Source: an uncultured virus (IMG/VR IMGVR_UViG_2061766007_000748) (taxonomy: Duplodnaviria > Heunggongvirae > Uroviricota > Caudoviricetes). From it: DNA of 64,000 nucleotides. Position 1 is the stretch's first letter. Every line of letters begins with the position of its first letter. Positions 623 through 53,844 of the stretch are shown here, one piece after another. The stretch lies in the IMG/VR virus record IMGVR_UViG_2061766007_000748; one strand, written 5' to 3'. A program made the translations under genes and the position numbers. A model generated the notes under the pieces. That model was given only the letters and a program-made list of their open reading frames with translations, did not search any database and was not told the origin of the DNA.

Positions 623-934
623 AAGATATAGGCGTTTCAGGGAGATACTGATTATGGAAGATATAAACTTAACTTTCAAAGGCCCGTTTCTTATTGTAAA
701 AGGTCCTGAATTGTGGATTAATTTTGTAAAGGAACATATAATGGATTTACTAAATGATTTTAGTGATGTACAGGAAATGTCTTTACAGAAAACTTGTCAG
801 AAACTAATAGATGATGAAAAGACTCAAACTGAATTTAAGTTAATGGTAAGCATAATAGCCATTGTAAACATATAAGGAAGGATATTACAACGATTAAATT
901 GACTTTTTAGGTTTTGCCATCTAACATTATTAAT

Positions 935-2791: not shown

Positions 2792-3604
2792 AATGAGAAA
2801 GCGAACACAACTAGCGGCAACTAACCTAAAAAAGATAATGAAGGAAAACGGTGTTGAATTAATTAAACAGTCTTATTATCCACCAGCCGACAGCATCATA
2901 TTGATATTTAGTTATACTGATAAGAATGTAGATAAGTTAGTAGAAAAGATTTCTCCACTTGCTAATTACAGGATAGAAAAAGGTAAAGAANNNNNNNNNN
3001 NNNNNNNNNNNNNNNNNNNNNNNNNAAAACAATGGAAGAAGAAAAAGTAACTCCTTGTAATTGGAAAGAAGTTAGTAACAATCCAGACTGGTTCTATGTT
3101 GGTTGCATAGACAGAAAGATAAACATTTGGAAACAATGTAAGAAGAAACACATCACACCAATTCAACTCTTTATGTCCTGCCCTTACTGTAAAGGTAAGG
3201 TTATTCTTGGAGAGAAGAAATGAGGATGTTCTATGAATGGCTTAATAAGATAGGATATACTGAAAATGAAATAAAGAAATTATCAAAACGTCATATTGAG
3301 ATTCTTATGGAAGAGTTCAGTATGTTACTAAAAGAGATGGGAGGAAATAAATGACGCCAGGTGAATTAAGGTGGAAGATAATTAAATTCTTTAATAACCA
3401 AGCACAGGTCTATATCACCAGTCCAACTAGAATGGAGGTTGATGTAAGTAAAGAAATAGACATAAGTGAATGGAAGAGATGTGCAGACACTTTGGGTTTT
3501 ACAGATAACAGTAAATCATTACCAAATTCATATAGGTATGATAATATAATCATAATGTTCTTTTACGGACCATTACAGAAATTCAATCAGAGGAATAAAA
3601 ACAA

Positions 3605-4048
3605 TTGGAGTATTTCACGACGACCCAGCTCTCAGAGCGATATAGACGGGATAACAGTACAATCGTCAACATCCTTAAAAGCGGAGGAATAGAAGCTGTA
3701 GGGGAAGGCGAACATAACGTAAAGTTATGGGGTGAGAATGCCGACATATATCTTTCAAAGTATGTAGTAAGCGAAACTGCGACATCAGCCAATAAATACG
3801 CTAAGGAACTTGGAGTACCGGCTAATGAGTTTAAGGTTATACTTAAATCACTTGGTATACATAACTTTCAGAGGGTAAGACGGAGTATGAAGGTAATGAA
3901 TGCCGNNNNNNNNNNNNNNNNNNNNNNNNCATTACCACTGGAAGAAATGAAACTCCTTCATCCGCTTGTTACTGATGAAAGATGTTTTCAGTTTAATTAT
4001 TGGCCAGATACAGAACCGATATGTTTCAAGGACTTGGATAATGACTGA
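3605..4048 (+). CDS. Putative HTH DNA-binding protein
   Basis: 'YFTTTQLSERYRRDNSTIVNIL' and 'SANKYAKELGV' resemble helix-turn-helix motifs; the gene spans a gap. Confidence 0.4.
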   Translation: MEYFTTTQLSERYRRDNSTIVNILKSGGIEAVGEGEHNVKLWGENADIYLSKYVVSETATSANKYAKELGVPANEFKVILKSLGIHNFQRVRRSMKVMNAXXXXXXXXXLPLEEMKLLHPLVTDERCFQFNYWPDTEPICFKDLDND

Positions 4049-4429
4049 CAGGTATATAGTCTACGTCAATATAGCCATATGTATAATCAATCAGGCTGTA
4101 CGGGATATCGGTAAGGACGGATACTGGAAGAAAGATGCGAAAGTCTTTTTCGATTCAGAATGGTATGAAGTTCTTCAGGGTATGATAGACCTGTATAAGA
4201 ATCCGGAGGGTAATACTATATGAACAGGGTGTTGAGGGAATTCTGGAAGTACAGAATGGAACTGTATGATGCCAGATATAAGTATCTTACCAGTATAGAA
4301 CGTTTGAAGGCTTGTGATAACCGTTATATGAGAAGATTGAACCAGTCTGTATGTAAGGCTATGAAACAGCGGTACAAAGAATCAACAAAACAATACCAGA
4401 ACTTTTTAAGAAATATTTCTGATTTTTCC

Positions 4430-4459
4430 TATACATAATGTTTTATTCAATGTTATAAT
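4430..4459 (+). promoter_or_regulatory. Sigma70-like early promoter
   Basis: TATACA-18nt-TATAAT with an extended -10 TG; AGGAGG RBS before ATG 4490. Confidence 0.7.
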
Positions 4460-5757
4460 CCTAAGTATAAATGCTTTAGGAGGCAATTTATGGATAACAC
4501 AGAATTCTACAAGAGAATCTTAAACGNNNNNNNNNNTAATATGTGTCAGGACTATTCAGACATCTACAAGGATGTTTACGGATACAGACCAAGAGACGAA
4601 CAGAGTATGTGCGTAAACGGATACAGTGGCAACCCCGACATTAATAAGTTCCGTGAATTACTTAAACAGGGTATCAATCCTCTCTTAGACCTTGACAGGG
4701 CTTATGACAGTTATATTGAGGATGAGGACGATTGGATGGAAGACTGTATGGAAAGGGATTTCTTTGAGACTAATCCTTCAAAGGAACAGATTATCAATCG
4801 TAATCCTGAATACGCTCAGTATTTCGTTTAATTCTATTATTGTAATAAGGAGTAAAATTATGACTAAAGAACTTGAAAAAGAAACAGAAGAATACGACCT
4901 TGTAATACGATTTAAGAGTAATAAACCTAAGTATGAGATTAGAGGTTACATAATAAATCATATTCTTGATGAGTTTGACAATTTGCAGATGTGGGATTTT
5001 AAGAGAAGTGGTGAGATTATAGAGCCAAGAGAAAAGCGAATTGAAGAACTTGAAAAAGAAAATAAAAAGTTAATACTTGGTAACAAATCACTTTCTGAAA
5101 AATTGGTGAATATCACAAGGAAAAAACTTGACTTACAGAAAGAAAACGCAGAACTGAAAAAGACTGTAGAACATTACAGAAAAGAACGAGAGTTTTTTAT
5201 TGGTGAGGTAGAAAAATGAAAAATGAAGAATTCGTGAGAAATATAGTTTTTTGCAATAACTGTAAAAAGTATGTGATGCCTTATGGTAGTGGTGTTTTAT
5301 TGTGGTGCCCAAAATGTGGAGTTGATAATCGAAATATTGAAGTCTCAGATGTGCTTGTTCACAATATGGAAGAACAACAAAATATTACAAAAAAATTAAA
5401 AGAAGCAAATAAAAAAGGTATCAAGATTATTTTATAAGGAGATAGAAAAATGAAAAACTTTTTATTAGGTATCATCCTAACTTTAATTATCGGTGGTTGG
5501 GTAACTCTTGCCATAGTAGGAGTAATTTCTGTAAAGACTGCAATTCTTGTTCCTGTTGGAATAGTTATAGGTTTCCTAATTGCTATGTGGCTATTTGGAT
5601 TGTGGTGGGATTCATAGGAGATAGAAAAATGTCTATAGTACAATCATGTCCTTATGACATAAATGGGGAACACTGTAAATATGAAATATATTATGGTGAA
5701 CCTATTTTTTCTAAATGTAAAAATTGTAGCAGAACAATTTTTAAGAGAGGTGTAGAA

Positions 5758-6069
5758 ATGAAAGACGAAGAAATGGCAAAAGAATGGTTTAATAAGGAAT
5801 TATATTTAGAGTCATCTATGTACAATATGCAAATAGAGTATTACTGTAAACAAGCCTTCCTTGCAGGACTTAAAGCAGGCAGAACACAATGGCACGATTT
5901 ACGGAAAGACAAGAATGATTTGCCGAAGTTTAGAAGAAATATTCTTGTAACTTGTGAGTACAGAAGTAAATTAAAGAAAAAGCGTGAAACTTTTGAATGG
6001 GACTATAATAGCGAAATGCCTTTACACGTTATCGCTTGGTGCGAAATCCCCACTTTTGATAAGGAGTAA
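5758..6069 (+). CDS. DUF551-like small phage protein
   Basis: 'WHDLRKDKNDLPK...VIAWCEIP' pattern; start moved to ATG 5758 after a GAGG RBS. Confidence 0.55.
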   Translation: MKDEEMAKEWFNKELYLESSMYNMQIEYYCKQAFLAGLKAGRTQWHDLRKDKNDLPKFRRNILVTCEYRSKLKKKRETFEWDYNSEMPLHVIAWCEIPTFDKE

Positions 6070-6241
6070 ATTATGGTAGAAGAAGATTATGAAGAAGTAG
6101 ATTTGGGTTTAGAAGAAGATGAAGAAACGGAAGAACGCAGATATTACTGTAAGACTTGCAGAGATTTAATGTGTCATTCTAGTGGTAAAGATAGATATGA
6201 AATCAACTGTAGTGGAGTTGAAGAAGATTAAGGAGTAAATT

Positions 6242-6685
6242 ATGTTTGAGAAAGAAGCAGAAGAAAGAGGTATTAAATATGCAGATAATCTTAAACCTTC
6301 AATCGGAAAGTTTGATGGTGAAGAAGGTTATTCTTGGAGTCAAGTTGAAGAAGGTTATGAAAATGGTTTCAAAGATGGTGCAGAGTTCGGCTATAACAAG
6401 GCTAATGAATGGCATTATGTGAAAGACGGAGATTTACCGAAAGCATATCAAAAATGCTATTTTATTTATTCTAATTCTTATAGAGAAGGTAACAAACCTA
6501 TTTTTTCAGAATCTAACATCAATGTTCTTACGGGTATTTATGCTTTTTTTCTTGATGAAGAAACAGGTGAAGAAACAACAGACCCTTGTTTTTATGACGA
6601 TATAAATGATAACGAAATAGGTTTGGAAGAAGTTTATGCTTGGAAAGAAATTGTACTTCCAGAACTTCCAAAGGAGAGTGAATAG
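6242..6685 (+). CDS. DUF551-like small phage protein (paralog of 5758)
   Basis: 'NEWHYVKDGDLPK...VYAWKEIVLP'. Confidence 0.55.
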   Translation: MFEKEAEERGIKYADNLKPSIGKFDGEEGYSWSQVEEGYENGFKDGAEFGYNKANEWHYVKDGDLPKAYQKCYFIYSNSYREGNKPIFSESNINVLTGIYAFFLDEETGEETTDPCFYDDINDNEIGLEEVYAWKEIVLPELPKESE

Positions 6686-7479
6686 AAATGGAAAAACTTA
6701 ATATGCAAAATTACGTCATTCCGAATATGACTAAAGAAGACTCAAATGCAATCTTCAATTGTCTGCATATTCTTTGTGAGAAGATGGAAACATTCTTCAA
6801 TGTAAACAATGACGGAAAAGATTTTGTCTATGATTGTGTAGACAAAGAAACAGGAAATACTATTACTGTAAGAATCAACAAGGAGAGTGAATAAATGTTA
6901 GGTGCTTTACTATGGGGAATAGGTGCAAGTATGGCTCTTGCAGAAGAAAATGAAAAAGCCAAAACAAGAAATGTTAAAGAACAGCTTGAATATGCAAAGA
7001 CAATCATTCAAGACCTGTTAGATAATTCTGATGAATACGCAAGAGAAAGGGCAATAAACTTTTTGAAGGAGAATGAATAGAAATGGAATTAGAAATCAAT
7101 GGTGTTTTCGATTTGAGCGAATCTGGTTTATCATCAGAAGATTTTCAGAAAAAATTGTTAGACTTTATTGAATCTGTAGATGTAAGTTTTGGTGGTGCTT
7201 TCTACGAACTTGATGAAAATGGAGAAAGAAAGGAGTAAATAAATGCAGAAAGTAGGAAAACAGAAACAATTAAAAGGCAGGTGTTCTAACTGTGAGAATA
7301 AGTTTATTGCAACTGCTGCCGATTTCTTTATGACACAGAATGTACGTTGGAAAACTTTACATCCAATGATTAGGTGCCCTTATTGTCAAGCATATTTATA
7401 TAAAAGTTCAGGTTTTATCGGTGGTGTTATATGGGAAGAACCTTCCTGGGAATTTAAGATTGTAAAGGAGAATAAATAA

Positions 7480-7743
7480 ATGCCAAACTTTGTAGATAAA
7501 AACGGAAAAACATTAAGAGAAAGGGATAAGGTTTACTGTAAGCTTGAAGATGGAACGATAGCTGAAGGCAGAATCCTTTATCATAAAGCAAGCAAACAAT
7601 ACATGGTACTTTTCAAATATTCCATGTGGTATGGAGAAGATGAGTTTGACTATCATTCTTATGGTAAAGGTTTTGTCCTTAAAGATGTTAAACCGGAAGA
7701 TCTTGAATTAATTGAAAGTTACCTTGGAAGCAGAAATCAGTAA
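7480..7743 (+). CDS. YopX-like small protein
   Basis: 'VDKNGKTLRERDKV' resembles the YopX DKNGxxIxEGD motif. Confidence 0.35.
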   Translation: MPNFVDKNGKTLRERDKVYCKLEDGTIAEGRILYHKASKQYMVLFKYSMWYGEDEFDYHSYGKGFVLKDVKPEDLELIESYLGSRNQ

Positions 7744-10700
7744 TATTCTATAATTATAATAAGGAGTAAAAATTATGACAATTAAGATTTATAAATCAAA
7801 CAACGGTGAACCGCCTTATAAGACTATCGGTGGAAATGTATCTTACATCTATAATGATGAATCAAAGATACTATCCGTTTATACAGGTAACGGTTGGTCA
7901 TATTTCCAAGATGTTAGAATTATCGTCACATATCAACCTGACGAAGTTCTTGTTTATGAGAAATGGAATAACAGTAAAGACCGTTTTGGTAATAAAGCCG
8001 GTGAATATGAACCTTTCTAAAAGGAGTGTGAATAATATGGGTGTATTATCGACAATGTTGCTTACCTGCTGTGACGCACTTGAAGATTATGAAGGTGAGT
8101 ATAAGTTTACTCATCTTTCTGAAATANNNNNNNNNNNNNNNNNNNNNNNNNNNNNNNNNTGGTTGCTGTAGCCTTTAAGAAGAAGATTCCCGGCTATGAA
8201 CCAAGCCTTCCTAACCTTGGTAAGATGCTGAAGAACTACGGAATGAAAGTAGTCTACAGGAATCCGTTTAAGGAAATTTTCACATCTATACAGTTCAGTT
8301 TCACTTTTCATAAAATAAAACAATTACTTAGGAAAAATAAGGTAAAGAAGTTTCTCAGGAGTAAGAAATGACANNNNNNNNNNNNNNNNNNNNNNNNNAA
8401 AAGTCCCTGAGGAGATTAATAACAAGTGTTCTACTTGTTATCTTTATGTTTATAATGGTTATGCTCAATGTCATGGCCCGGAAGCTGATTGTGTTTTATA
8501 TGACTATCGATATTATGAACCAATGTATCGTATAAAGAAGGAGTAATTATGTACAATGAAAGTTTTGTAGTTCTTTGTCGTGAAGGTAAGAAAACTTTAG
8601 CAGACCTAGACAATTTTATTGCAGATTGGCATAAACTATCTTCTGAAAGAAAACATGATTTACGATTTGAACTTGGTTTAACTAAGGAAGAATATGTCAT
8701 GTTTATGCTTGGTGAAGAGGAATCTGTTTTTCTCCCACTTATTAATTATAAGTTCGAGTATGATTGGGAACTTACTGGTCCGGCTTGTCCTGAACAGTAT
8801 GAAGTCTATAAGAAAGGAACCAGAGAAGTTGTTGCTTATGTTCGTGAACGATGGGATTCGTTTACTGTTTACTGCCCTTTTGCAGGTGACTATGATGTTT
8901 ATAGTGGGTTTGGTGATGTCACTATGCGTGTAAAGATTGAAATTGAAGATGCTATAAAGAAATGGTACAAGAAACATAACAGTATTTTCTTCAGAAAAGA
9001 TATTGAAAAAAGGCGTAAAGAAAGCAGTGATTTGATTTGGAGAAGTAATCCAAAACATGAATTTCACACAATGCCTTAAAGGAGAAATAAGATGAATATA
9101 TTTGATAAATTATATGGAACTTTGTTTATTATAACACTTATCTTGTTTGCAATCGGTCTGTGCTTGACAATTATCTATCTTGTTGAAGGCTGTACATTAC
9201 CTAAAGCCGATGCTGAGAAAGTAGAAAAGCATGGAGTTATCGCTTGGAGATTAATGATACCTTTCTTGATAATCTTTACAGTAACATTGGTATATCTCAT
9301 TTTTGTTGAATTGATACTTGATGGAATTTGGGGAATGAATATACATCTTCCTTTTTCTTTTTTACAATCATAGTTTACAAAGGGTGTTAGATTATGAATA
9401 CTGTGATAAAGATAAAGAATCCATATTATGACGCAAAAGATTGTGATTACTGTAAATGTGAGTATTCAGTCTATTCAGAATCTTTAGACCATTCAACACC
9501 ATTATACTGTAAGCGATGCAGTAAGGTGATAACGATATACAATCCGGTAACATCTGAAAAATATGCAAGACAAATCGAAGAGTGTGTAAGACTTGAGAAA
9601 TTAAGTTTATCATTAAGGAGAATTACTGAATGAAATATGCAACTAAACAACTAATTAAAAGATTATTGCATCCGTTCAAAAATGGATTCTGGTGCATTAT
9701 GAACATTGGTGGAAATTATCATTTTGGTATGTTATGGGAGACATGGGATAGTTATGCCGGTGATGGGGATTATGGCTATTCTTATTATTGGACCGGAAAC
9801 AGGAAAACAACAAAGCAACTCATTGTAGAATATCCCCATTGTGTATTCAAAATTAATGACGATTGCGGCTTTGATATTATAGTGCCGTTTTTCATTGCGT
9901 GGTTATTGGTTCTTCCTGGTACTATCTATAACAGATATAAATTGGAACAAGAAATCAGATTCTGGGAAGAATATCATAGAACCCATTATTTCAATGAAGA
10001 ATCTATGTCATGGGAGGAGAATCATTAATGATTAAGGTAAGAAGTGAAACTCCTGATAAATATACTTTTATCTGTGATACATACGAAGAAAAGAACTTTA
10101 TAGATTTACATCAGAATGAATTGTTTGACAAGTTTATCAATATGCGAACCAATGGTAAAATTAAGAACCTTGATGACCTTTACGAGAAAGCAACAGATTT
10201 AGAGTTTGGAGTAGCATCTATAAAATACTTTTGGTATATATCTCGTGGACTTGAATGGCTTTCAAGTACCGTAGATGTATTCCAACATTTTGTAAATGAG
10301 GAGTATAAGAATGAAACAGGTAACCAAACAGAAGATTGAAAAGTACGAAAAGGCATTTAATGAAGGATTACCGGTTTATATGTTTGTCAGAACCGGGCAG
10401 GACTTGAGGTATTATTCGTGGACTAGGATTACTAATAAGAAACAGATTAAAAAATGTGTATTGAATAATATAGAGATGAAGATNNNNNNNNNNNNNNNNN
10501 NTTAGGGAGAAACAAATAATTATGGAAAAATATCAGGTAATTAAATTCACGGTTTCAGATAACGATTATTATTTCTTAATGACATATACTGCACGTTATC
10601 TTGCGATGTGCCTTAACGATTCCAATTACAGCCTAGATACCCCGGAACAAATCATTCACGAATTCTGGAATCTTATGCACATTGATAAGGAACTCTTAAA

Positions 10701-40632: not shown

Positions 40633-43600
40633 ATGTCAGAAAAATATTACCTTGATGAACAAGGTCTTACAGAAGTAGCTAATCACGTTAATTCACGACT
40701 CAAAACCGTTACCGTTATGCCACAGAATCCGGCAGATGGTATTGTAAGACTTTATGTTGGTGCTACTAACAATAATTTCACCAAAGGACATATCTATCAG
40801 TATAATACAAATGCCTGGACTGATATTACTGAAGTTGATCAGACATTTAATCCTAGCAGTACCAATGCTCAAAGTGGTATTGCCATTGGAACGGAACTTG
40901 ATAAGAAAGTAGATAAAGAAAGTGGTAAAGGATTATCTACTAATGATTTTACGGATGCTCTTAAAGATAAATTAGATGGTATAGAAACAGGTGCTCAGGT
41001 AAATACTGTTACAGGTGTAAAAGGTGACAGTGAAAGTTCTTATCGTACTGGCAACATTAATATCACTAAAGATAACATAGGACTCGGTAATGTAATAAAT
41101 ACAGGAGATAGTGCAACACCTGTAGAAAACGGTACGACAAAATTCACAACCGGTGGTGCTTATACTGAATTAAATAAAAAGGTAGATAAAGAAAATGGAA
41201 AAGGTTTGTCTACCAATGATTTTACGGATGCCTATAAAACAAAACTTGAAGGAATTGAAACGGGTGCTGAAGTAAACGTTCAGTCAGACTGGTCACAGAC
41301 AAATAATGCAAGTGATGATTTTATAAAAAACAAACCCGTTATTGATACGACGGTAACAGAAGACAGTTCTAACCTTATTACCTCAGGTGCTGTTTATACG
41401 GCTATAGCAAACGAAACATCTGCAAGGGAAGATTCTGAATCTGCTATACAAGATGAAATTGATGATATAGACGACAGGGTATCTGACATAGAAGACGTTA
41501 TTCCAAATCAGGCAAGTGTTTCAAACCAACTTGCAGATAAAGATTTTGTTAATTCTTCTATTGCTACAAATACAGCAAACTTTTTGGGAACGTTTGAATC
41601 TATCAGTGATTTAAGGGCATATTCAGGAACAGTTACAAACAACGACTATGCTTTTGTAAGAAATAGTGTTGTTGAGTATAATGGTGGAGATTTTCCAAAC
41701 GTTACCACATTAAATAATTATGATAAGAATTTACTCACTAACGGTGATTATGCTTGGGTGGTTAATTCAGAAGATAACACGAAGTTTGATTTATACAGAT
41801 TTGATATTATTGAACAATCCTGGATTTTAAGAGCAACAAAGGTTGCTAAATCATCTGAGATGTTAAACAGTGCTTTCAACAGATATAAAGCAACTGTTTC
41901 AGGCTCAACCATAACCTGGATTTATGAATATACATTAAACAATTCAAGTTTCACAGCAGAACAATGGGCTACAATAAATTCNNNNNNNNNNNNNNNNNNN
42001 NNNNNNNNNNNNNNNGATGCAGATTCCGTTGGTGGAAGTGGAAAATATATTTCTGCAATTAGTGAATCTGACGGTATAATTTCAGCTACGGAAGGAACTA
42101 TAGATTCAAGTCCAACTCAAGGCTCAAACAATCCTATTACAAGTGGAGCAGTTTACACAGGACTTGATGGTAAGGTTGATAAAAGCACTGCTGTAACGGG
42201 TGTAAAAGGTAATAGTGAATCTACATATAGAACAGGTAATGTAAATATCACTAAAGCAAATGTTGGTCTTGGAAGTGTAGTAGATACTGGAGATAGTGCT
42301 ACTCCGGTTGAGAATGGAACAACCAAGTTTACAACAGGTGGTGCTTATACTGAACTTGCAAAGAAACAGGATGTTCTTACTTTTGATACTGCTCCTACAA
42401 CAAGTTCAACTAACCCTGTTACTTCTGATGGTATTAAGACAGCAATAGATAATGCAGAAACTAATGCTAAGAATCTTGCAAACGCAACTGGAACACTTGC
42501 TATAGGTAAAGGTGGTACAGGAGCTGATAACGTTAATGGTGCTGTTACTAATTTGCTTGGAGGCATAGGTGTTGGAGATAGTAATGTAACAGATAATACT
42601 GATTTAATAACATCTCATGTTGATGGTTATTCTGTTTCAAACAATAAGTTCTATAAACGAAAAGTCACATACCTACTTCCGTATCTTAATAACCGAATTT
42701 CAGGTAGACCACACATTGTTTGTGGTACAGCGGCTTCTACAGTGGCAAAAACAGCTAGTCTGGCTGGTTTTGTATTAATGAAGGGTGCAGAATTAACAAT
42801 TGAATTCACTAATACAAATACAGCTTCTAATCCTACTCTTAGTATAAATGGTACTACCGCAACTCAAATAATGGGATTAAACGGAAATCCTGTAGGTAGT
42901 GGGAATCAGATAACATCAGGTAAAAACTATTATCTAACATACGATGGGGAATATTGGTTTTTAGATGAATCTTGTAATGTTCCTAATGCAAGATATGCCC
43001 CATATTCGGGTGAAGCTATATCATCAGAGTCTGCTGCAAACGCAAAATATTACGGTACTTGTAGCACATCAAGAGCCACAAACGCTAAGGTTGTTACTTG
43101 TGATGATTTTGTTCTTGTTACAGGTTGTAGAATCGTGGTTAATTTTACAGATACTGCTGGTAGTGCTCCGACTTCTGGTAATATCACTATGGATATAAAC
43201 AATACGGGTGCTAAAAATGTATACAATAAAAACGGTACTCAAATGACTTATGCTTACAGTGGAGAGTTTCGTGCTTCTCGAAGATGTGAGTTTATTTATG
43301 ACGGTACACAATATATCTGGCTTAACTATGACTCTAATACAACATATTCTACAATCACACAAGCAGAAATCACTGCAGGTACAAGTACGGGTTCAAGACT
43401 TGTCACTCCGAAATTACTTGTTGATAATTTTGTAAAGAAAGAAAGTGGTAAAGGATTATCTACAAATGATTTTACGGATACTCTTAAAACTAAATTAGAC
43501 GGTATACAAACTGGTGNNNNNNNNNNNNNNNNNNNNNNNNNNNNNNNNNNNNNNNNNNNNNNNNNNNNNNNNNNNNNNNNNNNNNNNNNNNNNNNNNNNN

Positions 43601-44040
43601 NNNNNNNNNNNNNNNNNNNNNNNNNNNTTGTATCAGGAACTATGGTTGCGGTTAAGTTCTCTAATACAAATTCTGCAAGCAGTGTTCAATTTACTCTTGA
43701 TGGTGGCACTACAAAATATTCACTTTATTATAACGCTAGTGCTTATACAGGTTCTAATTCTGCAATTACAGGTTATGCAAATCGAACAATCTACTATTTA
43801 TTTGACGGTACATATTTTGTGTATCAAAGTGATGGATTGATAAATGATGGTAATGATGATAATAAAGTGACCCAAACGGCAACTACAACTAGTGCAGAAT
43901 ACGAAGTTTTATTTAGTGCAACTGCTGATAATACAACCAGAACAGAAGGTGCTAGAAAAAATAGTAATTTGAAATTCAATCCTAGTACTGGTAATTTAAC
44001 CGTAACCACCGTAAATGGATTTGCATTTAGTATCGTTTGA
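40633..44040 (+). CDS. Long fibre protein 1
   Basis: 1135 aa; 'K(D/K)E.GKGLSTNDFTD..K.KL.GI.TG' x3, 'VTGVKG.SES.YRTGN.NITK.N.GLG' x2 and 'C.T....AK....F.L..G....F...NT....T....G......YDG.Y' modules. Confidence 0.8.
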   Translation: MSEKYYLDEQGLTEVANHVNSRLKTVTVMPQNPADGIVRLYVGATNNNFTKGHIYQYNTNAWTDITEVDQTFNPSSTNAQSGIAIGTELDKKVDKESGKGLSTNDFTDALKDKLDGIETGAQVNTVTGVKGDSESSYRTGNINITKDNIGLGNVINTGDSATPVENGTTKFTTGGAYTELNKKVDKENGKGLSTNDFTDAYKTKLEGIETGAEVNVQSDWSQTNNASDDFIKNKPVIDTTVTEDSSNLITSGAVYTAIANETSAREDSESAIQDEIDDIDDRVSDIEDVIPNQASVSNQLADKDFVNSSIATNTANFLGTFESISDLRAYSGTVTNNDYAFVRNSVVEYNGGDFPNVTTLNNYDKNLLTNGDYAWVVNSEDNTKFDLYRFDIIEQSWILRATKVAKSSEMLNSAFNRYKATVSGSTITWIYEYTLNNSSFTAEQWATINXXXXXXXXXXXXDADSVGGSGKYISAISESDGIISATEGTIDSSPTQGSNNPITSGAVYTGLDGKVDKSTAVTGVKGNSESTYRTGNVNITKANVGLGSVVDTGDSATPVENGTTKFTTGGAYTELAKKQDVLTFDTAPTTSSTNPVTSDGIKTAIDNAETNAKNLANATGTLAIGKGGTGADNVNGAVTNLLGGIGVGDSNVTDNTDLITSHVDGYSVSNNKFYKRKVTYLLPYLNNRISGRPHIVCGTAASTVAKTASLAGFVLMKGAELTIEFTNTNTASNPTLSINGTTATQIMGLNGNPVGSGNQITSGKNYYLTYDGEYWFLDESCNVPNARYAPYSGEAISSESAANAKYYGTCSTSRATNAKVVTCDDFVLVTGCRIVVNFTDTAGSAPTSGNITMDINNTGAKNVYNKNGTQMTYAYSGEFRASRRCEFIYDGTQYIWLNYDSNTTYSTITQAEITAGTSTGSRLVTPKLLVDNFVKKESGKGLSTNDFTDTLKTKLDGIQTGXXXXXXXXXXXXXXXXXXXXXXXXXXXXXXXXXXXXXXVSGTMVAVKFSNTNSASSVQFTLDGGTTKYSLYYNASAYTGSNSAITGYANRTIYYLFDGTYFVYQSDGLINDGNDDNKVTQTATTTSAEYEVLFSATADNTTRTEGARKNSNLKFNPSTGNLTVTTVNGFAFSIV

Positions 44041-44052
44041 TGAGGTATATTA

Positions 44053-45142
44053 ATGAGTTATTTGAAAGCAACAAAAAGTAGTACGAATCATCGTTTTTCT
44101 CTTGAACCTCAAAATGATACAACATCATCTTTATTTCGACCTATAAGAACTGTTGTTGTTTCTGCAGCAAATACTTTAAGTTTCGGAACAATAAATTATG
44201 TAAATGGAACAAAATATCATGTTATGGTAAAGTTTCGTACAAGGGGTGATGGTGATTCAACTTCTTCTAAATGTTCATCTGTTGGATTTATAGCAAACAA
44301 TTCTGCCTGGTCTAATACATGGAGTTACATACATACCTCGGCAACGGCTTATGCTGAAAGAGGACAAATTGTAGAATGGACTTATAACTTTACTGCAAAT
44401 GTTACAGAATCACGGAGTACGGGTTTATATTTTATTATANNNNNNNNNNNNNNNNNNNNNNNNNNNNNNNNNNNNNNNNNNNNNNNNNNNNNNNNNNNNN
44501 NNNNNNNNNNNATGTGGGATGATAATGGTCATGTGTATAGTGAAAACGGCAATCCAAACGAAAGTATAATAAAATATTGGTCTGATGGAACAACTTCTAT
44601 AACAACGGAAAAAACATTAATTAATGCGACAACATCGGAAAATTATTTATATAGTGGAGTTATAAATTATAATTATATAACAGTTGGTGAAAAATACAGA
44701 CTCACTTTTCAAGCAAAAAAAACTTCAAATTGTAAAAGCGTAGACGTATTTGTTTTATCTTCAGATTATTCCACCACAGGTTTTATAACATCATCTACAC
44801 CTTCTGTTACTACAGAATATTATCAATNNNNNNNNNNNNNNNNNNNNNNTACTGCCTACACTTAGAATTAGATTTGACAATAACGGTTCTTCTGATACAA
44901 CCGATAGTACATTATATATAAAAAACGTTACACTTAAAAAACTTGAACAATATCCTAGAAATTTTATGAAAACAACTAAAGATGGAACAGAATATTTTAC
45001 TCATGCTTTTAATACATCAAAAGATATACAAATATCAGAAGGTACAACATCTAACTATTTAGCACAAAGTATACATGAATACAAATGTTCAGAATTAACT
45101 TCGTTTACATATGATACGTTAGATAAAAAATTTGAATATTGA
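44053..45142 (+). CDS. Carbohydrate-binding-module-like fibre partner protein (joined across gaps)
   Basis: Two jelly-roll-like segments, 'GTKYHVMVKFR..EWTYNFTA' and 'GEKYRLTFQAK..IRFDNNG..STLYIKNVTLKK'; stop at 45142. Confidence 0.55.
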
Positions 45143-45154
45143 TGAGGAGATTAT

Positions 45155-47353
45155 ATGACCTATACGACAAATTATAATTTACATAAACCTGATACTACAG
45201 ATAATTTTAATATTAGTGATTTTAATGCCAATAGTGATATAATCGACAAACAATTTGGAATAACTTCGGCAAATATACCAAAAGTAACGTGTAGTACAGC
45301 TGCTTCTACTGTAGCTAAAACTGCAACAATAAATGGAACTTTTGTATTAAATCGTGGTGCTAGAGTGTTAGTTGTTTTATCTACCGCAAACACCGTGGCT
45401 TCCGCAACATTCAATCTTAATTCTACGGGGGCAAAATCAATATTGGTTAATGGTGCTTCCGTAACAGCAAGTAATTTGACTGCACAAACTTATTTGGCAG
45501 AATATGATGGTACTAATTGGAGATTTATAACAAGTATATATACAAGTGATTATGCTAGATATTCAAATAGTGCAGCTTCTGCCACAAGTGCGGGTAAACT
45601 CACCACCGCTAGAAAAACCTATGTGACATTAGGAACAGCAAGTACAACCACAACTAGAGATTGGAGTGGAGATACAACAATTCCTGTTAATGGAACATTA
45701 AATATTGTAAACGGTGGTACAGGGGCTACTACAGATAAAGCTGCTCAAAATAATCTACTTGGTTCTATGAATCAAGTTACAGACGATTTAACAGACAATA
45801 CACAATTTGTATTCAAGTATGTAACACCTTCCAACAACAATGGTGCTTTATATAATTGTACTGCACAATATCCTGTCAAATATTTTAATAATCGAATCTC
45901 AGGTAGACCTAATCTTACCTGTTCTACAGCTGGTGCGACTGCAGCTAAAACTGTAGATTTAGCGGGATTTGTACTTAGTAAAGGAGCTCAGTTANNNNNN
46001 NNNNNNNNNNNNTCCAACTCTTAATGTAAACTCTACAGGTGTTAAAGAAATTAGAATTAACAGAACCACTGTAAGTACTGATTCATCCAGTGGCAACTAT
46101 CTTAAAGCTTCAACAGCGTACTATGCTCATTATGATGGTTCTTATTGGCAGTTAGATACATATCAGGTTCCTCTAGCCAGATATGCGGCATCCACGGCTT
46201 CTGCAATCGACTGTTCTTATCCTGAAAGTAAGTTTGAAGCCTATTGTGATACGGCAGCGGCTACGGTTGCTAAAGTAGGACGATGTAGAGGATTCGCTAT
46301 TTATACCGGTTGTGTTCTATCTTTAAGAGTAACTGTTGCTAATACAGCTACTAGCCCAACATTGAATGTTCAATCCAGTGGTGCTAAAACAATATATATC
46401 AATGGTAGTGCTGTTACTAGCAGTAATCAACTCTCAGTAGGTTTATACATTGCTTATTATGATGGAACATACTGGCAGTTAATAAGAACAGTAACAGATA
46501 GCACAAAACGTCTTACGGTAGACGCTTTTCATAGTCCTGATGTTGCATTTAGTTATACACCAGCTGCTACTACNNNNNNNNNNNNTCATTTAAGTTAGTT
46601 GCTGGAACCAGGTTTAGATTTTATTTAATAAATTCAAATACGGTTGCCAATGCTACATTAAACGTGAATGGTACTGGTGCCTTATCTATGAGTCTTAATN
46701 NNNNNNNNNNNNNNNNNNNNNNNNGTTGGTATGATATAGTTTATAATGGAACTGGTTATTTACTGAACTCGGTGCTCCAACCAGATTGGACCCAGACAGA
46801 TAACACTAAAGCAGATTTCATTAAGAATAAAATACCTATTTGGATAACAAGCGGAACAGCCGTTGATTCTACAGCAACGATACTTTTGAATATGGTTTAT
46901 CCTGTAGGTTCTGTTTACATGAGTGTAAACAATGTATCTCCACAGTCATTCCTTGGTGGAACTTGGCAAGCAATTACAGATGGTAGATTTGTTCGTGCAA
47001 GTGGCAGTAATGCGGCTAGTGTACCAACAATAGCACAGATAAAGGCTGGAACGGGAATTCAGGCTGAAGGATTACCTAATATTACAGGTAGTATCGCTTC
47101 TTCAAACAGTACATATGGTATTGGTTCTAATAATGGATCAACAAATGTAGGAGCATTAAGTGGTTCAGGATTTAATAAAAAGACTTCTGCAGGTACATCA
47201 AGTAGTAGTAGCTATATGAACAAAATTGAGTTTGATGCTAGTTTGGGAAACTCAACTGTTCCTGATGGTGCATCTAGTGGTAAAATATATGGAAATTCAA
47301 ATCATGTTACACCAAAGAATATGTCAGTGTATATGTGGGTAAGGACGGCTTAA
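45155..47353 (+). CDS. Tail fibre protein 2 (one gene split by gaps into ORFs 45155, 45969 and 46664)
   Basis: N-terminal 'MTYTTNYNLHKPDTTD..FNANSDIID', about 4 'CSTAA..AK..TLNVNSTGAK..YDG.W' modules and a C-terminal tip 'YPVGSVYMS..GGTW..GLPNITGS..FDAS..VTPKNMSVYMWVRTA'. Confidence 0.8.
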
Positions 47354-47357
47354 TATT

Positions 47358-48794
47358 ATGGCAGATTTAAGAATAATTGGTCTTAATGGAGAAATTGAAG
47401 TATATCCATTATTCTCAGGAACAGCTAATGGTGTTATTGCGGCTACTATAAATAGTTCTAATTATTACCTGAAAACTTGTACTATTAATGTTGGAACTTT
47501 ACAGGCTACAACAGATGGTGGTACGGCTTCTTTTGAGAAGACCAGAACCTGTACCACCTGTAATTCCTGTGATTTATGTTATAACGTGACTGATTCTTGT
47601 AGAACTTGTGAAACGTGCGAATCACAATGTAATTCAACCTGCCAAAGTTGTAATATAGGATGTGATACAACCTGTAATGATAGATGTTATGATTGTCAGA
47701 GTTGTAATACAGGATGTGATACAACCTGTAACAGCAGATGTTATAACTGTAATTCTTGTAATAAACAATGCCAAGGCTGTGTTAACTGTAACGGAAATTG
47801 TAATACTGCTTGTTATAGTGATAATAGTGGGTGTTCAGTTTGCCAAGGATGCACAACCTGTGATGGAAGTTGTAACGGAAGTTGTTTTGGAAGTTGTAAT
47901 TTGACTTGTCAAGGAACTAATACAACCTGTAGCGGTAATTGTAATGAATGTCAAGTCTGCAACTCTGAACAAAATTGTGCCAAGGTTTGCTATAGTCATG
48001 TGCAAACCAAGTGTTCTTCTGGTTGCTATGATAAATGTGTTGGTCAATGTTATGTTAGTTATTATATATGTAATTCAGGTCAAGGATCCTGTTCAACGAA
48101 TTGTTATACATCTTGTATCGACTGTTATAATTATTGTCATGGAAATTATTGTTCAGGTGGTCATCAAGGTTGTCAAAACGGATGTAAAAACGGTAGTTGT
48201 ACTCCTTGCTATGGTTCTTATAGTATATGCTCCTCAGGTGAGGGTTGTGTAGATGGAACATCTTGTGCTTGTAACGGTTACGGAGGGGCAGGTTGTTATG
48301 GTGATAATGCCTGTTCAGGTGGTTGCCAATCATGTGCATCAATATGTTACGGAAAGTGCCAAACAGGAAGTTATACCGTTACTTGTTCAGCTTGTAACAG
48401 CGGTTGTACAGCTTGTGACAGCAATTGTTACGGTAAATGTTATGTTTGTAATACAAGTTGTAATGGTACTTGTAATGGTACTTGTAATGCCGGTTGTACT
48501 AGTTGCGATGGAAGTTGTACAAGTTCATGTAATAGTACTTGTGACGGTTGCCAGGCTTATCACAATCAAGGATGTCAACAATGTTATAAATGCCAAAGTT
48601 ATGTTAATGCCTGTCGTCAATGTCATGACTGCCAACTTTGTAACGGAACTTGTCAGGGTTGTGTTGGTTGTCAGGCGGGAGATTGTGCAACCTGTTATGA
48701 GTGTAATTCTACCTGTTATAATTATTTTGCTACTAACGCTCAGATAGCGTGTGGTAATGCTACCACCTGGGGCTATCCTGGAATCACATCGTAA
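47358..48794 (+). CDS. Giant Cys-rich CxxC/CxxxC repeat protein; putative radical SAM substrate / adhesin
   Basis: 478 aa with 96 Cys by hand count; ~63-aa Cys-poor N-terminus; starts 4 nt after the fibre 2 stop. Confidence 0.8.
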   Translation: MADLRIIGLNGEIEVYPLFSGTANGVIAATINSSNYYLKTCTINVGTLQATTDGGTASFEKTRTCTTCNSCDLCYNVTDSCRTCETCESQCNSTCQSCNIGCDTTCNDRCYDCQSCNTGCDTTCNSRCYNCNSCNKQCQGCVNCNGNCNTACYSDNSGCSVCQGCTTCDGSCNGSCFGSCNLTCQGTNTTCSGNCNECQVCNSEQNCAKVCYSHVQTKCSSGCYDKCVGQCYVSYYICNSGQGSCSTNCYTSCIDCYNYCHGNYCSGGHQGCQNGCKNGSCTPCYGSYSICSSGEGCVDGTSCACNGYGGAGCYGDNACSGGCQSCASICYGKCQTGSYTVTCSACNSGCTACDSNCYGKCYVCNTSCNGTCNGTCNAGCTSCDGSCTSSCNSTCDGCQAYHNQGCQQCYKCQSYVNACRQCHDCQLCNGTCQGCVGCQAGDCATCYECNSTCYNYFATNAQIACGNATTWGYPGITS

Positions 48795-48830
48795 TACATT
48801 CTATTATTGAAATATAAAAAGGAGTTTATA

Positions 48831-50093
48831 ATGAATGCTAACATATCATTAGTTTTATACGGAATAAAGAAATGTTCCGGTTCGTGCCTTTACTGTTCGG
48901 CTGCTTCAACAATGAAATATCGTTCTAAAAGTAATCATACATCATTTGTTTTTGATAAAAAGAAAACGAAAGAACGAATTCTTGAATTTTGTAAAGATGC
49001 TCTCGATAGAGCTAAACAAAATAATGAAGGTGTTGAGCTGAATGTAGATATATGGGGTGGGAATCCTGTAGAGAACATAGACCCTTTCAAACAGGCAGTA
49101 GATTTTATAGAAAACGAACTTAAAGAATTTAAGTTTATCACAATTCACACTAGTGGTAATGGTCTTGAACTTCAGGACAGAGACATTGTAGATTATCTTA
49201 TCAGTCATAATATTCATTACCAGTTATCACATGATGGACTTGGACAATGGATTCGTACCGGTGAAATAGATCCTCTTTATTGGGATAAGACAAAGGATAA
49301 TATAGCAGAACTTGCAAGAAAAGGAATCTTGGACTGGATAAACTGTACCCTTTCAGCTCGTAATCCTTCTTTCTTCAGGAACATTGAATTTTGGAATAAA
49401 TGGCGTGACGATTTTAGAATTGCTGATAAAGATATTACCATTAAACTTAATCACATTTATGACGGAACAAAACCAATCACTAAGAAATGGCTTGGTAAAG
49501 ATAATGAATTTATCAAGCATGGTGAGGAAGTGGGAGATTTGTGTTTCCACGGCACAACCTTACAAGAATATCTCCACGAGTTCAGGAAATTATCTTATAT
49601 CTGTATGACACCAGGCATTGAAAATAACATTACGTTCAAACCTTTTGTAAATTACATCAGAGGACAATATGACAGATTTAAGATAATGAAAACTGATGAA
49701 GATTGTGGAAGTTGTGTAGCCTTTCAGCGTGGACTTAAAAAAACTAACTTCGCAATTGATACTAAAGGTGAATATTGTCAGTGCAATCTCATTGATAGCA
49801 GCACTAAAGTTCAGAATCCTGGGGCTAAACAACCTGATTACTGTAAAGGTTGTAGATACGAAAAAATGCTTGAATGTAATAAATGTGGTTCAGAGAATTA
49901 TATGCCTAAATGTGAATATCATTACTGGTGGGCTGAAACATTGGAAGAAACTTGGCAGGTTATTCAACTTATGCAGCAATTACAAAACAATCAGAATAAT
50001 CAAATGAGAAATAATTTCTGTAACGGAGACGAATGCAATTGCAAAGATAAAAACCGGCAACCGGTATTCTGTGTAAAGGATTATATTTTCTAA
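48831..50093 (+). CDS. Radical SAM enzyme with SPASM/twitch-type Cys-rich C-terminus
   Basis: 'CSGSCLYC' (CxxxCxxC), 'IWGGNP', 'HTSGNG', 'LSHDG' and 'CGSC..AIDTKGEYCQC..YCKGC..ECNKC..KC'; AAGGAG RBS before ATG 48831. Confidence 0.9.
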   Translation: MNANISLVLYGIKKCSGSCLYCSAASTMKYRSKSNHTSFVFDKKKTKERILEFCKDALDRAKQNNEGVELNVDIWGGNPVENIDPFKQAVDFIENELKEFKFITIHTSGNGLELQDRDIVDYLISHNIHYQLSHDGLGQWIRTGEIDPLYWDKTKDNIAELARKGILDWINCTLSARNPSFFRNIEFWNKWRDDFRIADKDITIKLNHIYDGTKPITKKWLGKDNEFIKHGEEVGDLCFHGTTLQEYLHEFRKLSYICMTPGIENNITFKPFVNYIRGQYDRFKIMKTDEDCGSCVAFQRGLKKTNFAIDTKGEYCQCNLIDSSTKVQNPGAKQPDYCKGCRYEKMLECNKCGSENYMPKCEYHYWWAETLEETWQVIQLMQQLQNNQNNQMRNNFCNGDECNCKDKNRQPVFCVKDYIF

Positions 50094-50097
50094 ACAA

Positions 50098-50131
50098 AAA
50101 CCCTACTCAATTACGAGTAGGGTTTATTTTT
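50098..50131. terminator. Likely bidirectional terminator closing the fibre-rSAM unit
   Basis: aaaccctactc-aattac-gagtagggttt with flanking A and T tracts, between convergent genes. Confidence 0.8.
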
Positions 50132-50439: not shown

Positions 50440-51253
50440 TTAAGCTGCTATAAGTATCTTTTGAGCTTTATTAAGCATTTGATACCCGTCCATAAAACCT
50501 ATCATCTTTGCTGTTGAAACAGGCTTCTTCTTTTTGTCGTTACTTACAAAATCAGCGACAGCATTGTAAAGGCCCCATTTTGTACCGCGGAAGTTCTGTA
50601 GGTCGTCTTTGTTCTTGTAAATATCTGCAATTGATTCAAGTACATATTTCTTCTGGTTTTCTGAGAAGTCAAACTTCTTAAAGAACTCGCGGAAGAATTT
50701 GTCTTCGTTTACTTTTTCAATAGCAAGTTTTTCTGCGTCTTCCTTGATACGGTCAATGTAGTTAAGTGAAAGTGAAAGTGAACTTTCTGCTTCCTTCTGC
50801 TTTTCTTGAAGATTACCAAGATGTGCTACTCGCCAAAGTCTTGTAGCACCCTGTTCTGCCAACTGTAAGGTGTTGTTACAGCAAACCCTCACATTGGTTA
50901 TTCCTGCGGTTAAACCAAATACACCGTTGTGACCGTTTGAAACAAACAAGTAATTTTCAACCTTGTCACCAACCAGGTTAGTTTCAGGAAGTCTTACAAG
51001 GAGGAATACACGAGCTCCGTTATAAAGGCTACCTGCTGTTTCGTAATGACATTCAACACCTTTAGCGTTCTTGATAATCGCATCTGTAAAGTCAAACAAG
51101 TCTTTGTTCTGATAAACCTGATACTTTTCCTTTACAACACCAAGAACTTCTTTTGTATCTGAACGAACATTAGCAAAGGTATTAGGAATCTCAATTCCAC
51201 CCTTTAGATAAACAGGCTGTTGAACTACATCCCAACCAAGGTTTGCAAGTTTA
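50440..51253 (-). CDS. DUF932-family phage/plasmid protein (5' end in gap)
   Basis: Frame extends upstream as 'ANLGWDVVQQPV..ANVRSDTKEVLGVV..YQVYQN'; also 'YETAGSL..G', 'SNGHNG', 'VRVCCNNTL' and 'GTKWGLYNAVADF'. Confidence 0.8.
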
Positions 51254-53064: not shown

Positions 53065-53844
53065 ATGTTTGAACAGGAACAGATTCTAGAGAATCCTACG
53101 GTATTGATATGTGGCTATGGTATAGTAGGTAAGAATATTAAAAAGGATTTTCCTTTTGCACATACTTACGATGTTTATGTTAAAGCTTTTCCCGATTACA
53201 CTACTCCTCCTGATACTACATACGATATTGCTTTTATTTCTGTTCCTACACCCTTAAAAGATAACAGATGTGATATAACCTATGTTAAACAGGTTCTTTC
53301 TACAGTCAAGGCAAACATCTATGTTATTAAGTCTACTATTCCACCTGAAACCACAAATCATTTAAAAACCGAATTTCAGAAAAGAATTGTCTTCTCACCC
53401 GAATATACTGGAATCACTCATTCTTCCAATGCCGGTAATTTTGTAATATTGGGTGGAGAAAATGAAGATGTTCATATTATCAGACAACTTTATGAACAGG
53501 TAAAAGGACCAGAATTATATATCTACCAGTGTTCCAGTACTGAAGCAGAAATCATTAAATATATGGAAAACTGTTTCCTTGGACTAAAGGTGGTATTTTG
53601 TAATCAGTTCAAGGATATTGCAGNNNNNNNNNNNNNNNNNNNNNNNNNNNNNNNNNNAGGATTTATTTTAGATAAACGAGTCGGAAAATCACATACCCTG
53701 GTTTATGACAAATATAGGGGATATGACAGCAAATGTCTGAATAAGGATATTCCTGCCTTTATTACAGAAGTAAAAGAAAGGGGAATGGATTCTTTTATTA
53801 TGGAATCTGTAAACGAAATAAATAACAAGATCAAAGCACGTTAA
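53065..53844 (+). CDS. UDP-glucose/GDP-mannose dehydrogenase family protein
   Basis: 'ICGYGIVG', 'FISVPTP', 'IKSTIPP', 'FSPEY', 'AEIIKYMEN' and 'GYDSKCLNKD'. Confidence 0.85.
   Translation: MFEQEQILENPTVLICGYGIVGKNIKKDFPFAHTYDVYVKAFPDYTTPPDTTYDIAFISVPTPLKDNRCDITYVKQVLSTVKANIYVIKSTIPPETTNHLKTEFQKRIVFSPEYTGITHSSNAGNFVILGGENEDVHIIRQLYEQVKGPELYIYQCSSTEAEIIKYMENCFLGLKVVFCNQFKDIAXXXXXXXXXXXXGFILDKRVGKSHTLVYDKYRGYDSKCLNKDIPAFITEVKERGMDSFIMESVNEINNKIKAR

Follow-up and report, generated by a model that had tools for sequence, protein, structure and literature searches.

We analysed a 64,000-nucleotide stretch of DNA from an uncultured virus of the Caudoviricetes (IMG/VR record IMGVR_UViG_2061766007_000748), the whole of which is called the window here. 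Our results point toward the last two genes of its tail-fibre operon as an enzyme and its substrate: a cysteine-repeat protein of 478 residues with 96 Cys, the presumed substrate (47358..48794, plus strand), and a radical S-adenosylmethionine (SAM) enzyme of 420 residues with a SPASM-like C-terminal domain (48831..50093, plus strand). That the enzyme modifies the Cys-repeat protein is very probable, and that it does so by thioether chemistry, as analogy with known systems suggests, is slightly favoured. The best explanation as a whole, in which the pair would give a thioether-ringed, fibre-associated product, stands at about even chances.

The unusual composition of the first of these two genes had been described in an earlier note made from the letters of the DNA, and the count is confirmed: 478 residues with 96 Cys (20.1%), in an open reading frame (ORF) that starts 4 nucleotides past the stop of the fibre ORF 46664..47353. 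The cysteines are closely and regularly placed, 39 of the 95 Cys–Cys spacings being four residues and 34 being three (73 of 95 together). Gly, Ser, Thr and Asn contribute 49–56 residues each and Tyr 31, and hydrophobic residues are nearly missing. Only one of the 96 window ORFs of at least 100 residues has 8% Cys or more, and the median Cys content is 1.3% in ORFs of at least 150 residues; the Cys richness of 47358..48794 is not chance composition. ORFs in other frames inside the gene (e.g. 48253..48747) are by-products of the repetitive sequence.

Particularly, the residues around the cysteines are far from random. Within the repeat core, Cys is followed by Asn, Gln or Asp 46 times, against 26.7 ± 3.7 in shuffled sequences, and Asn or Asp stands at position −3 from Cys 28 times, against 11.8 ± 2.9; none of 2000 shuffles reaches either value. 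Gly follows Cys once, against 14.5 times in shuffles. The protein of the window holds 22 NxxC motifs, 18 of which are CNxxC.

Five close homologues (478–616 residues, 44–57% identity) align with 89 invariant Cys columns. Common to them are a short C-terminus and, at the other end, some 65 residues (RII..GEIEVYPL...SFQRTKTCPTCN). Between these the repeat core differs in length with its Cys columns kept, and many CN and CQ dipeptides are invariant among the five. The non-repeat N-terminal region (residues 1–65, 'RII..GEIEVYPL'; 47358..47552, plus strand) is conserved in alignments A2 and A3 and is a putative leader-like element or attachment handle. The handle is conserved across phages while the C-terminus of the upstream fibre differs, a pattern more in keeping with a partner that is itself conserved, the enzyme for instance, than with attachment to one particular fibre tip. 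A profile of this region, run against 1.84 billion representative proteins, gave nine matches at E ≤ 0.001, the only true relatives being two fragments (P0121 and P0122), both of which run on into Cys repeats. P0123, P0124 and P0129 were rejected as unrelated repetitive proteins, and P0125–P0128 were set aside on their match pattern alone (many short stretches in long proteins). The Cys-repeat protein itself had no match in Pfam (E ≤ 0.01), NCBIfam or PHROG and no usable match in the ESM Atlas, and tblastn against GenBank phages returned nothing for it or for the enzyme. Neither the full-length protein nor its residues 1–64 drew a match among 5.8 billion proteins, a result that probably reflects composition filtering and is no evidence of absence.

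The radical SAM gene follows after a gap of 36 nucleotides. Its listed ORF (48807..50093) begins with TTG; the likelier start is the ATG at 48831, 7 nucleotides behind AAAGGAG, from which residues are numbered here. The radical SAM cluster motif CX3CX2C (C15, C19, C22; 48873..48896, plus strand) is invariant in all 21 enzyme family members of alignment A1. The C-terminal third is Cys-rich, and seven of its cysteines are likewise invariant in A1 (C295, C318, C338, C341, C349, C352 and C361; 49713..49913, plus strand), marking putative auxiliary-cluster sites. The canonical SPASM motif reads C..G-x4-C / C-x2-C-x5-C-x3-C / C, with seven to eight Cys and two auxiliary clusters. The pattern found here (C295-x17-G-x4-C318, C338-x2-C341-x7-C349-x2-C352, C361) has the canonical order with altered spacing, and two auxiliary clusters are predicted because of these seven invariant cysteines. 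As an observation apart, residues ~397–420 (50020–50090) form a low-confidence tail, C-N-x-x-x-C-N-C ... P-V-F-C-V-K-x-Y, which is conserved in the close clade; it resembles the substrate repeat and could be a fourth metal site or a self-mimic.

The AlphaFold2 (AF2) model of the enzyme has a mean predicted local distance difference test score (pLDDT) of 86.1 and a predicted template modelling score of 0.84. Foldseek with this model placed anSME first (E 2.8e-9), followed by CteB, ChlB and SuiB; the fold of a radical SAM core plus a SPASM domain is present, and the C-terminal region superposes on the SPASM domains of CteB and anSME. The A1 profile, compared with solved structures, matched CteB (E 3.9e-11), TigE (1.1e-8) and ChlB (2.3e-4), over the radical SAM core only. 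When the 21 members were scanned singly against NCBIfam, the SCIFF maturase, HxsB, PapB and ScfB-like models matched 19 of the 21 members, QhpD 17 and anSME one. Pfam PF04055 (Radical_SAM) was matched by 19 of the 21 at E ≤ 1, the best at 1.8e-6, and PHROG gave no match for the enzyme. The nearest relatives in sequence and fold are thus peptide- or protein-modifying SPASM enzymes and not small-molecule ones, as the earlier note had expected; its 'SPASM-like' C-terminus holds by fold and by the seven conserved cysteines, though not by hidden Markov model (HMM). Structural alignments begin at residue 92 of CteB, 105 of SuiB and 107 of TigE, and the cluster motif of the phage enzyme already lies at residue 15; the phage enzyme therefore lacks an N-terminal, PqqD-like RiPP recognition element (RRE; RiPP, a peptide made by the ribosome and modified after translation). 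On sequence and modelled fold, it belongs to the SPASM class of radical SAM enzymes that modify peptides and proteins, as a divergent member without an RRE. The search of 5.8 billion proteins returned 169 relatives of it (33–94% identity), nearly all metagenome proteins, on contigs of up to 318 kb.

The pairing is also found outside the window. Scans with A1 gave 6 IMG/VR loci, 15 metagenome loci and one from a genome collection (a 34.7-kb contig binned with a Candidatus Fimenecus metagenome-assembled genome), 22 in all and, after removal of two duplicates, 20 distinct loci, given here by L numbers. Before counting, small Cys-flagged ORFs that overlapped longer ORFs on the other strand or in another frame were dropped (for example L009 4107-4319, L012 7104-7445, L016 1226-1636, L019 13778-14071, L020 12084-12542, L021 12126-12452 and L022 9115-9495). 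One or more Cys-repeat ORFs, with 19–146 Cys at 9–24%, lie in the flanks of the enzyme gene in 18 of the 20; the two loci lacking one, L007 and L014, are contigs of 2.2 and 3.3 kb. As a control, an ORF with at least 19 Cys was found in none of 18 unrelated IMG/VR loci (chance pattern matches). In the close clade (52–77% enzyme identity), where tail-fibre genes stand alongside, the enzyme and Cys genes abut in all seven informative loci, the window counted; the window, L002 and L011 have the tandem order, whereas in L001, L008, L010 and L022 the genes converge and their ends overlap, so that the adjacency has survived inversion. In the distant clades (28–37% identity), the Cys-rich gene lies 14 nucleotides to ~7 kb from the enzyme gene. 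The synteny of fibre, Cys-rich and radical SAM genes for which the earlier note had proposed a search is therefore recurrent. Moreover, the enzyme tree has three well-supported groups, and the type of repeat tracks the group: C-N/Q-x(-x)-C in that of the window, G-E-x-x-C octamers and D/E-rich forms in the second, and C-T-x-x-C or CxxC in the third. The non-Cys N-terminal regions are clade-specific and common to paralogues within a locus, as in CrpA and CrpB. This recurrence among related phages makes it probable that the Cys protein is chemically stapled by the enzyme.

Some of these loci show features of their own. L002 has two Cys-repeat ORFs 20 nucleotides apart (6380-7027 and 7047-7961), of which only the first bears the handle and the second opens in Gly/Cys repeats; they may be one gene split by a stop, or the second may encode a handle-less substrate. 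Upstream of the enzyme gene, L018 holds a second radical SAM gene (5529-7040; PF04055, E 4e-12) as well as three ORFs with Cys that are paralogues of one another (699-4776). Relatives also lie on large contigs (L011, 368,867 nucleotides; L002, 219,523; P0071, 318,426), so the module would also occur in very large phages, or in large host contigs. A conserved protein of ~310–330 residues with only a weak PAC2 match precedes the enzyme gene in four loci (L003:5388-6383, L019:5433-6410, L020:7057-7998 and L021:7065-7994) and may be another accessory gene.

The same comparison bears on a different view, in which the Cys protein is a binder of metal or Fe–S clusters, for instance in a metal-stiffened fibre, and no substrate at all, the enzyme, with the reductase where there is one, making or modifying a sugar, a nucleotide or a small molecule. 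In T4, fibres hold iron by way of His; spacings of the CxxC and CxxxC kind are typical of metal sites, and CxxCxxCxxxC occurs seven times in the protein of the window. Additionally, a UDP-glucose dehydrogenase-like gene lies 3 kb from the operon (53065-53844; PHROG 9148, E 3e-26) and hints at sugar chemistry in this phage. However, the protein has no Fer4 or other metal-domain match, none of its seven CxxCxxCxxxC motifs is followed by Pro as in ferredoxins and polyferredoxins, and CxxCxxCxxxCP is found in none of 24 Cys-repeat proteins. The widely differing repeats (CNxxC, CTxxC, GExxC 8-mers), each staying with its own enzyme clade, the adjacency that persists through inversion, and nearest enzyme relatives that modify peptides all argue for an enzyme and its substrate, and a metal binder next to a small-molecule enzyme is rather improbable. 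Regarding the earlier note, which had allowed for Fe–S or metal loading beside RiPP chemistry, its pairing and enzyme class are supported, whereas the loading has no positive support.

Among known systems, the closest precedent for the phage pair is CrpC/CrpA of Methanococcus voltae, in which a SPASM radical SAM gene adjoins that of a large Cys-repeat protein. CrpC installs ranthionine thioethers on CrpA, a Cys-rich protein of 28.8 kDa; its SPASM domain has seven Cys, and the first of the auxiliary clusters there may be a binding site for substrate Cys (Dieter et al., 2026; PMC13692751). Like the phage protein, CrpA has a non-Cys N-terminal region, C-terminal repeats and Cys near Gln or Asp; CrpC has seven SPASM cysteines, and the phage enzyme seven putative ones. 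CrpA-like proteins are delimited in that text by at least 100 residues, at least 10% Cys, a non-Cys N-terminal region, Cys repeats and an adjacent radical SAM gene (PMC13692751), and the phage protein falls within this definition with 478 residues, 20% Cys, a 65-residue N-terminal region and 36 nucleotides to the enzyme gene. The two systems also differ: CrpC has a predicted RRE and the phage enzyme none; CrpC belongs to TIGR04463, which matches neither the window enzyme (E ≤ 0.1) nor any of the 21 family members (E ≤ 0.01); CrpA consists of ten 17-residue repeats, whereas the phage protein has 96 Cys at a spacing of 3–4 residues; and CrpC/CrpA is cellular and pyrite-induced, whereas the phage pair lies in a tail-fibre operon. 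Phages go unmentioned in the CrpC paper (PMC13692751). The earlier remark that the substrate is far larger than typical precursors is to be moderated in view of the thioethers already described on CrpA.

Other precedents are peptides. CteB (PDB 5WGG/5WHY; TIGR03974) modifies the SCIFF peptide CteA, of ~45 residues with six Cys; it carries an N-terminal RRE, the phage model aligning from its residue 92, and shares ~15% identity with the phage enzyme. NxxcB, of the streptococcal radical SAM RiPPs (RaS-RiPPs), is described in a review as converting NxxC to a Cys–Asn beta-thioether, with Gln and Asp tolerated (PMC9389541). The window protein holds 22 NxxC motifs; NxxcA, however, is a short peptide with a single link, and the likeness is one of motif. 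In freyrasin, a single enzyme, PapB, makes repeated small thioether rings, six Cys-X3-Asp rings in all. The PapB model (NF047865) shows a weak HMM affinity in 19 of the 21 phage-enzyme members, with scores far under the family cut-off (21.5 vs 340 bits), and its system differs in having a peptide substrate with a leader and an exporter in the cluster. These precedents, NxxcB, PapB and CteB on peptides and CrpC on the protein CrpA, lend support to the thioether proposal.

Several observations weigh against this proposal or against parts of it. In the window enzyme, PF04055 scores 25.3 bits, below its cut-off of 29.5, and the NCBIfam matches (HxsB, ScfB-like orphan maturase, PapB and QhpD) all stay well short of their cut-offs, and none of them extends past the radical SAM core. 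The SPASM models (PF13186 / TIGR04085) found no match in the 21 members (Pfam at E ≤ 1; NCBIfam lists), and the RRE domain is missing. The three best fold matches are tied and stand for different chemistries, thioethers in CteB, conversion of Cys to formylglycine in anSME and cyclophane C–C links in ChlB, between which the modelled fold alone cannot say. AF2 gave no fold for the Cys-repeat protein (pLDDT 31), and 'rod' as a description of the product is conjecture because of this. Features of RiPP-type clusters (short leader precursor, protease, exporter) are not seen, the candidate being 478 residues long with no protease or exporter gene near. From the Cys side, reciprocal scans of IMG/VR with profile A3 and with the motif CQSCNxxC[D/N]xxCN reached only the L001 contig, and the motif CQxCNxxCQxC reached 20 loci, of which 18 were out-of-frame chance matches and two the contigs of L001 and L002; with only two true genes on contigs already known, this survey is too small to inform. 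An aldo/keto reductase gene (PF00248, E down to 4.6e-33) lies beside the enzyme gene in 9 of the 20 distinct loci; it is unexplained by the thioether model and would be in line with an intermediate that is an aldehyde, or with some other task on small molecules. The placement of the Cys protein in the virion, which we regard as reasonably probable, has gene neighbourhood as its sole basis; no fibre gene adjoins upstream in L011, and the module of clade B has the terminase as a near neighbour. What we observed is how the genes are ordered, the Cys-rich composition, a motif tied to position, a pairing that recurs and the class of fold; from these we infer the substrate relation, the thioether chemistry and the placement in the virion.

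The reductase and the tied folds raise the idea that the same enzyme and substrate are joined by another chemistry: formylglycine formation from Cys in the manner of anSME, cyclophane C–C bonds on the 31 Tyr as made by ChlB-like enzymes, or epimerisation. The reductase loci (L002, L004-6, L016-18 and L020-21) span all three enzyme clades, the genes lying at L002:9264-10151(-), L005:7162-7926, L016:7090-7995, L018:7077-7985 and L020:12814-13734(-); the reductase may be a third component of the module and, on the formylglycine variant, could possibly act next. The window, however, has none (best tblastn E 0.43). The motif in which anSME (PDB 4K36-4K39) forms formylglycine, C/S-x-P/A-x-R, does not occur in the window Cys protein and is absent from 21 of the 24 Cys-repeat proteins, and the anSME HMM matches only one of the 21 phage-enzyme members, against 19 for thioether maturases. 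As for Tyr C–C links, the invariant residue is Cys and not Tyr. On this evidence we consider a chemistry other than thioether formation unlikely.

On the thioether model, the enzyme, with one SAM-cleaving [4Fe-4S] cluster and two auxiliary clusters, would act in the reducing, anaerobic cytoplasm of the host on the 478-residue Cys-repeat protein. As the enzyme lacks an RRE, recognition would probably go through the 65-residue N-terminal handle or the repeats themselves. Working along C-[N/Q/D/Y]-x(-x)-C units, it would bond the sulfur of Cys to a carbon in the side chain or backbone of a residue close by, in a link of ranthionine or sactionine type; the acceptors it favours would be Asn, Gln or Asp that precede the Cys by two to three residues. 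Small thioether rings, dozens of them in a chain, would result, giving a stiff, protease-resistant and redox-independent rod or knob, used by the phage as a fibre-associated structural or host-binding part; such properties would suit an exposed fibre part in the rumen. More tentatively, and somewhat short of even chances, part of the tail fibre may consist of a protein in which a dedicated radical SAM enzyme without an RRE has turned the core of ~400 residues into thioether micro-rings, dozens in succession, a 'vulcanised' polymer replacing disulfides in an anoxic, protease-rich gut.

The fibre association is suggested by the surroundings of the pair. In the window, L002, L008, L010, L001 and L022, the Cys gene lies directly 3′ of tail-fibre genes in the same operon: the ORF upstream of it in L008 is 51% identical to the window ORF 46664..47353, that in L010 encodes a fibre or minor tail protein (PHROG 13892, E 3.6e-30) and that in L002 an 888-residue fibre with a Phage_fiber_2 repeat. 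L020 has a neighbour of 1115 residues and 77 Cys with weak tail-fibre and S74-chaperone matches. These observations speak against a giant RiPP-like product that works outside the particle, for instance as a toxin, as a factor that masks receptors or as a matrix protein set free by lysis. RiPP maturases do normally yield diffusible products, the Cys repeats of L018 are fused to a weak histidine-phosphatase-like domain, and L011 and the clade B genes have no recognisable fibre gene adjoining. However, the first 20 residues of the Cys protein have no obvious signal-peptide-like hydrophobic stretch (judged by eye, no predictor having been run), and, as the earlier note had pointed out, exporter and protease genes are absent from the flanking genes and the operon is that of the tail fibres. 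A product outside the particle is thus very unlikely, and we retain the fibre-associated part.

The habitat agrees with the anaerobic rationale that the earlier note had put forward. The window DNA is found in bovine-gut metagenomes, and sheep-gut runs of another study contain a relative that is ~93.5% identical, on a 5.4-kb contig with the fibre–Cys–enzyme block (219 differences over 3.4 kb); the host is therefore expected to be an anaerobe of the ruminant gut. Among the sequencing runs containing window DNA, no RNA datasets are listed. In run X5, the middle of the Cys gene (~47765-48540) is almost without contig cover, which could be an assembly failure on the repeats.

Family searches of the window ORFs identify the window as phage DNA: besides a primase and an SbcD-like nuclease, it encodes portal, tail and tail-fibre proteins. 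Masked bases (N) make up about 6% of it, and no tRNA is found in it. The tail-fibre genes run from 40633 to 47353, directly 5′ of the Cys-repeat ORF. What the earlier note had taken as a single second fibre gene (45155-47353) is fibre-like, and is spread over two frames as three ORFs; masked N runs interrupt each of them and leave the gene structure provisional. The first (45155..46024, plus strand, 289 residues) is tail-fibre-like (PHROG 11393, E 1.1e-6), with a masked run at 45995-46012. The second (45969..46598, plus strand, 209 residues as listed, its true start uncertain for masked bases) has no family match and is fibre-like by a ~90-residue 'C-x-T-A-A-x-T-x-A-K' module that, as read in the translations, it has in common with the adjoining fibre ORFs. 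The third (46664..47353, plus strand) is a fibre or baseplate protein with a gp10-like C-terminal head domain (Pfam PF21939 Gp10_C, 45.2 bits vs a cut-off of 27, E 2.4e-11) and matches PHROG tail proteins 5717 and 6465. Across 40633-46598, the ~90-residue module, starting C-(S/G)-T-A-A-x-T-(V/A)-A-K, occurs in at least five copies over three ORFs, which suggests modular shuffling of fibre domains. Past the enzyme gene, the terminator expected there is present as a hairpin at 50098..50125 with an 11–12 bp stem and T-runs on both strands; it resembles a bidirectional intrinsic terminator, minus-strand genes convergent with the operon lie past it, and it reads as the close of the operon. The enzyme/Cys-repeat pair is thus flanked by fibre genes, the terminator and a DUF932 gene (50440-51099, minus strand, E 7e-38).

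Full-text literature searches, with subscription journals and supplements outside their scope, found no paper in which a radical SAM enzyme of a phage is paired with a virion protein rich in Cys. Thioether formation by radical SAM/SPASM enzymes is already known on small antimicrobial peptides and, since 2026, on one archaeal protein; the distinguishing marks of the phage system are a free-standing substrate that is almost all repeat (96–146 Cys) and an enzyme without an RRE. If the proposed model is true, no structural protein of a virus would have been known before to be modified by a radical SAM enzyme, and among ribosomal products this would be by far the most heavily cross-linked one known. 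The enzymes would then form a family that needs no RRE and treats repeat after repeat over the length of a protein, a property of use in stapling peptides and proteins; ~170 natural enzyme variants of different repeat types are open to comparison. The model would also imply a new class of heavily cross-linked protein material and, for the phages that carry it, a new route to stable virus particles without oxygen.

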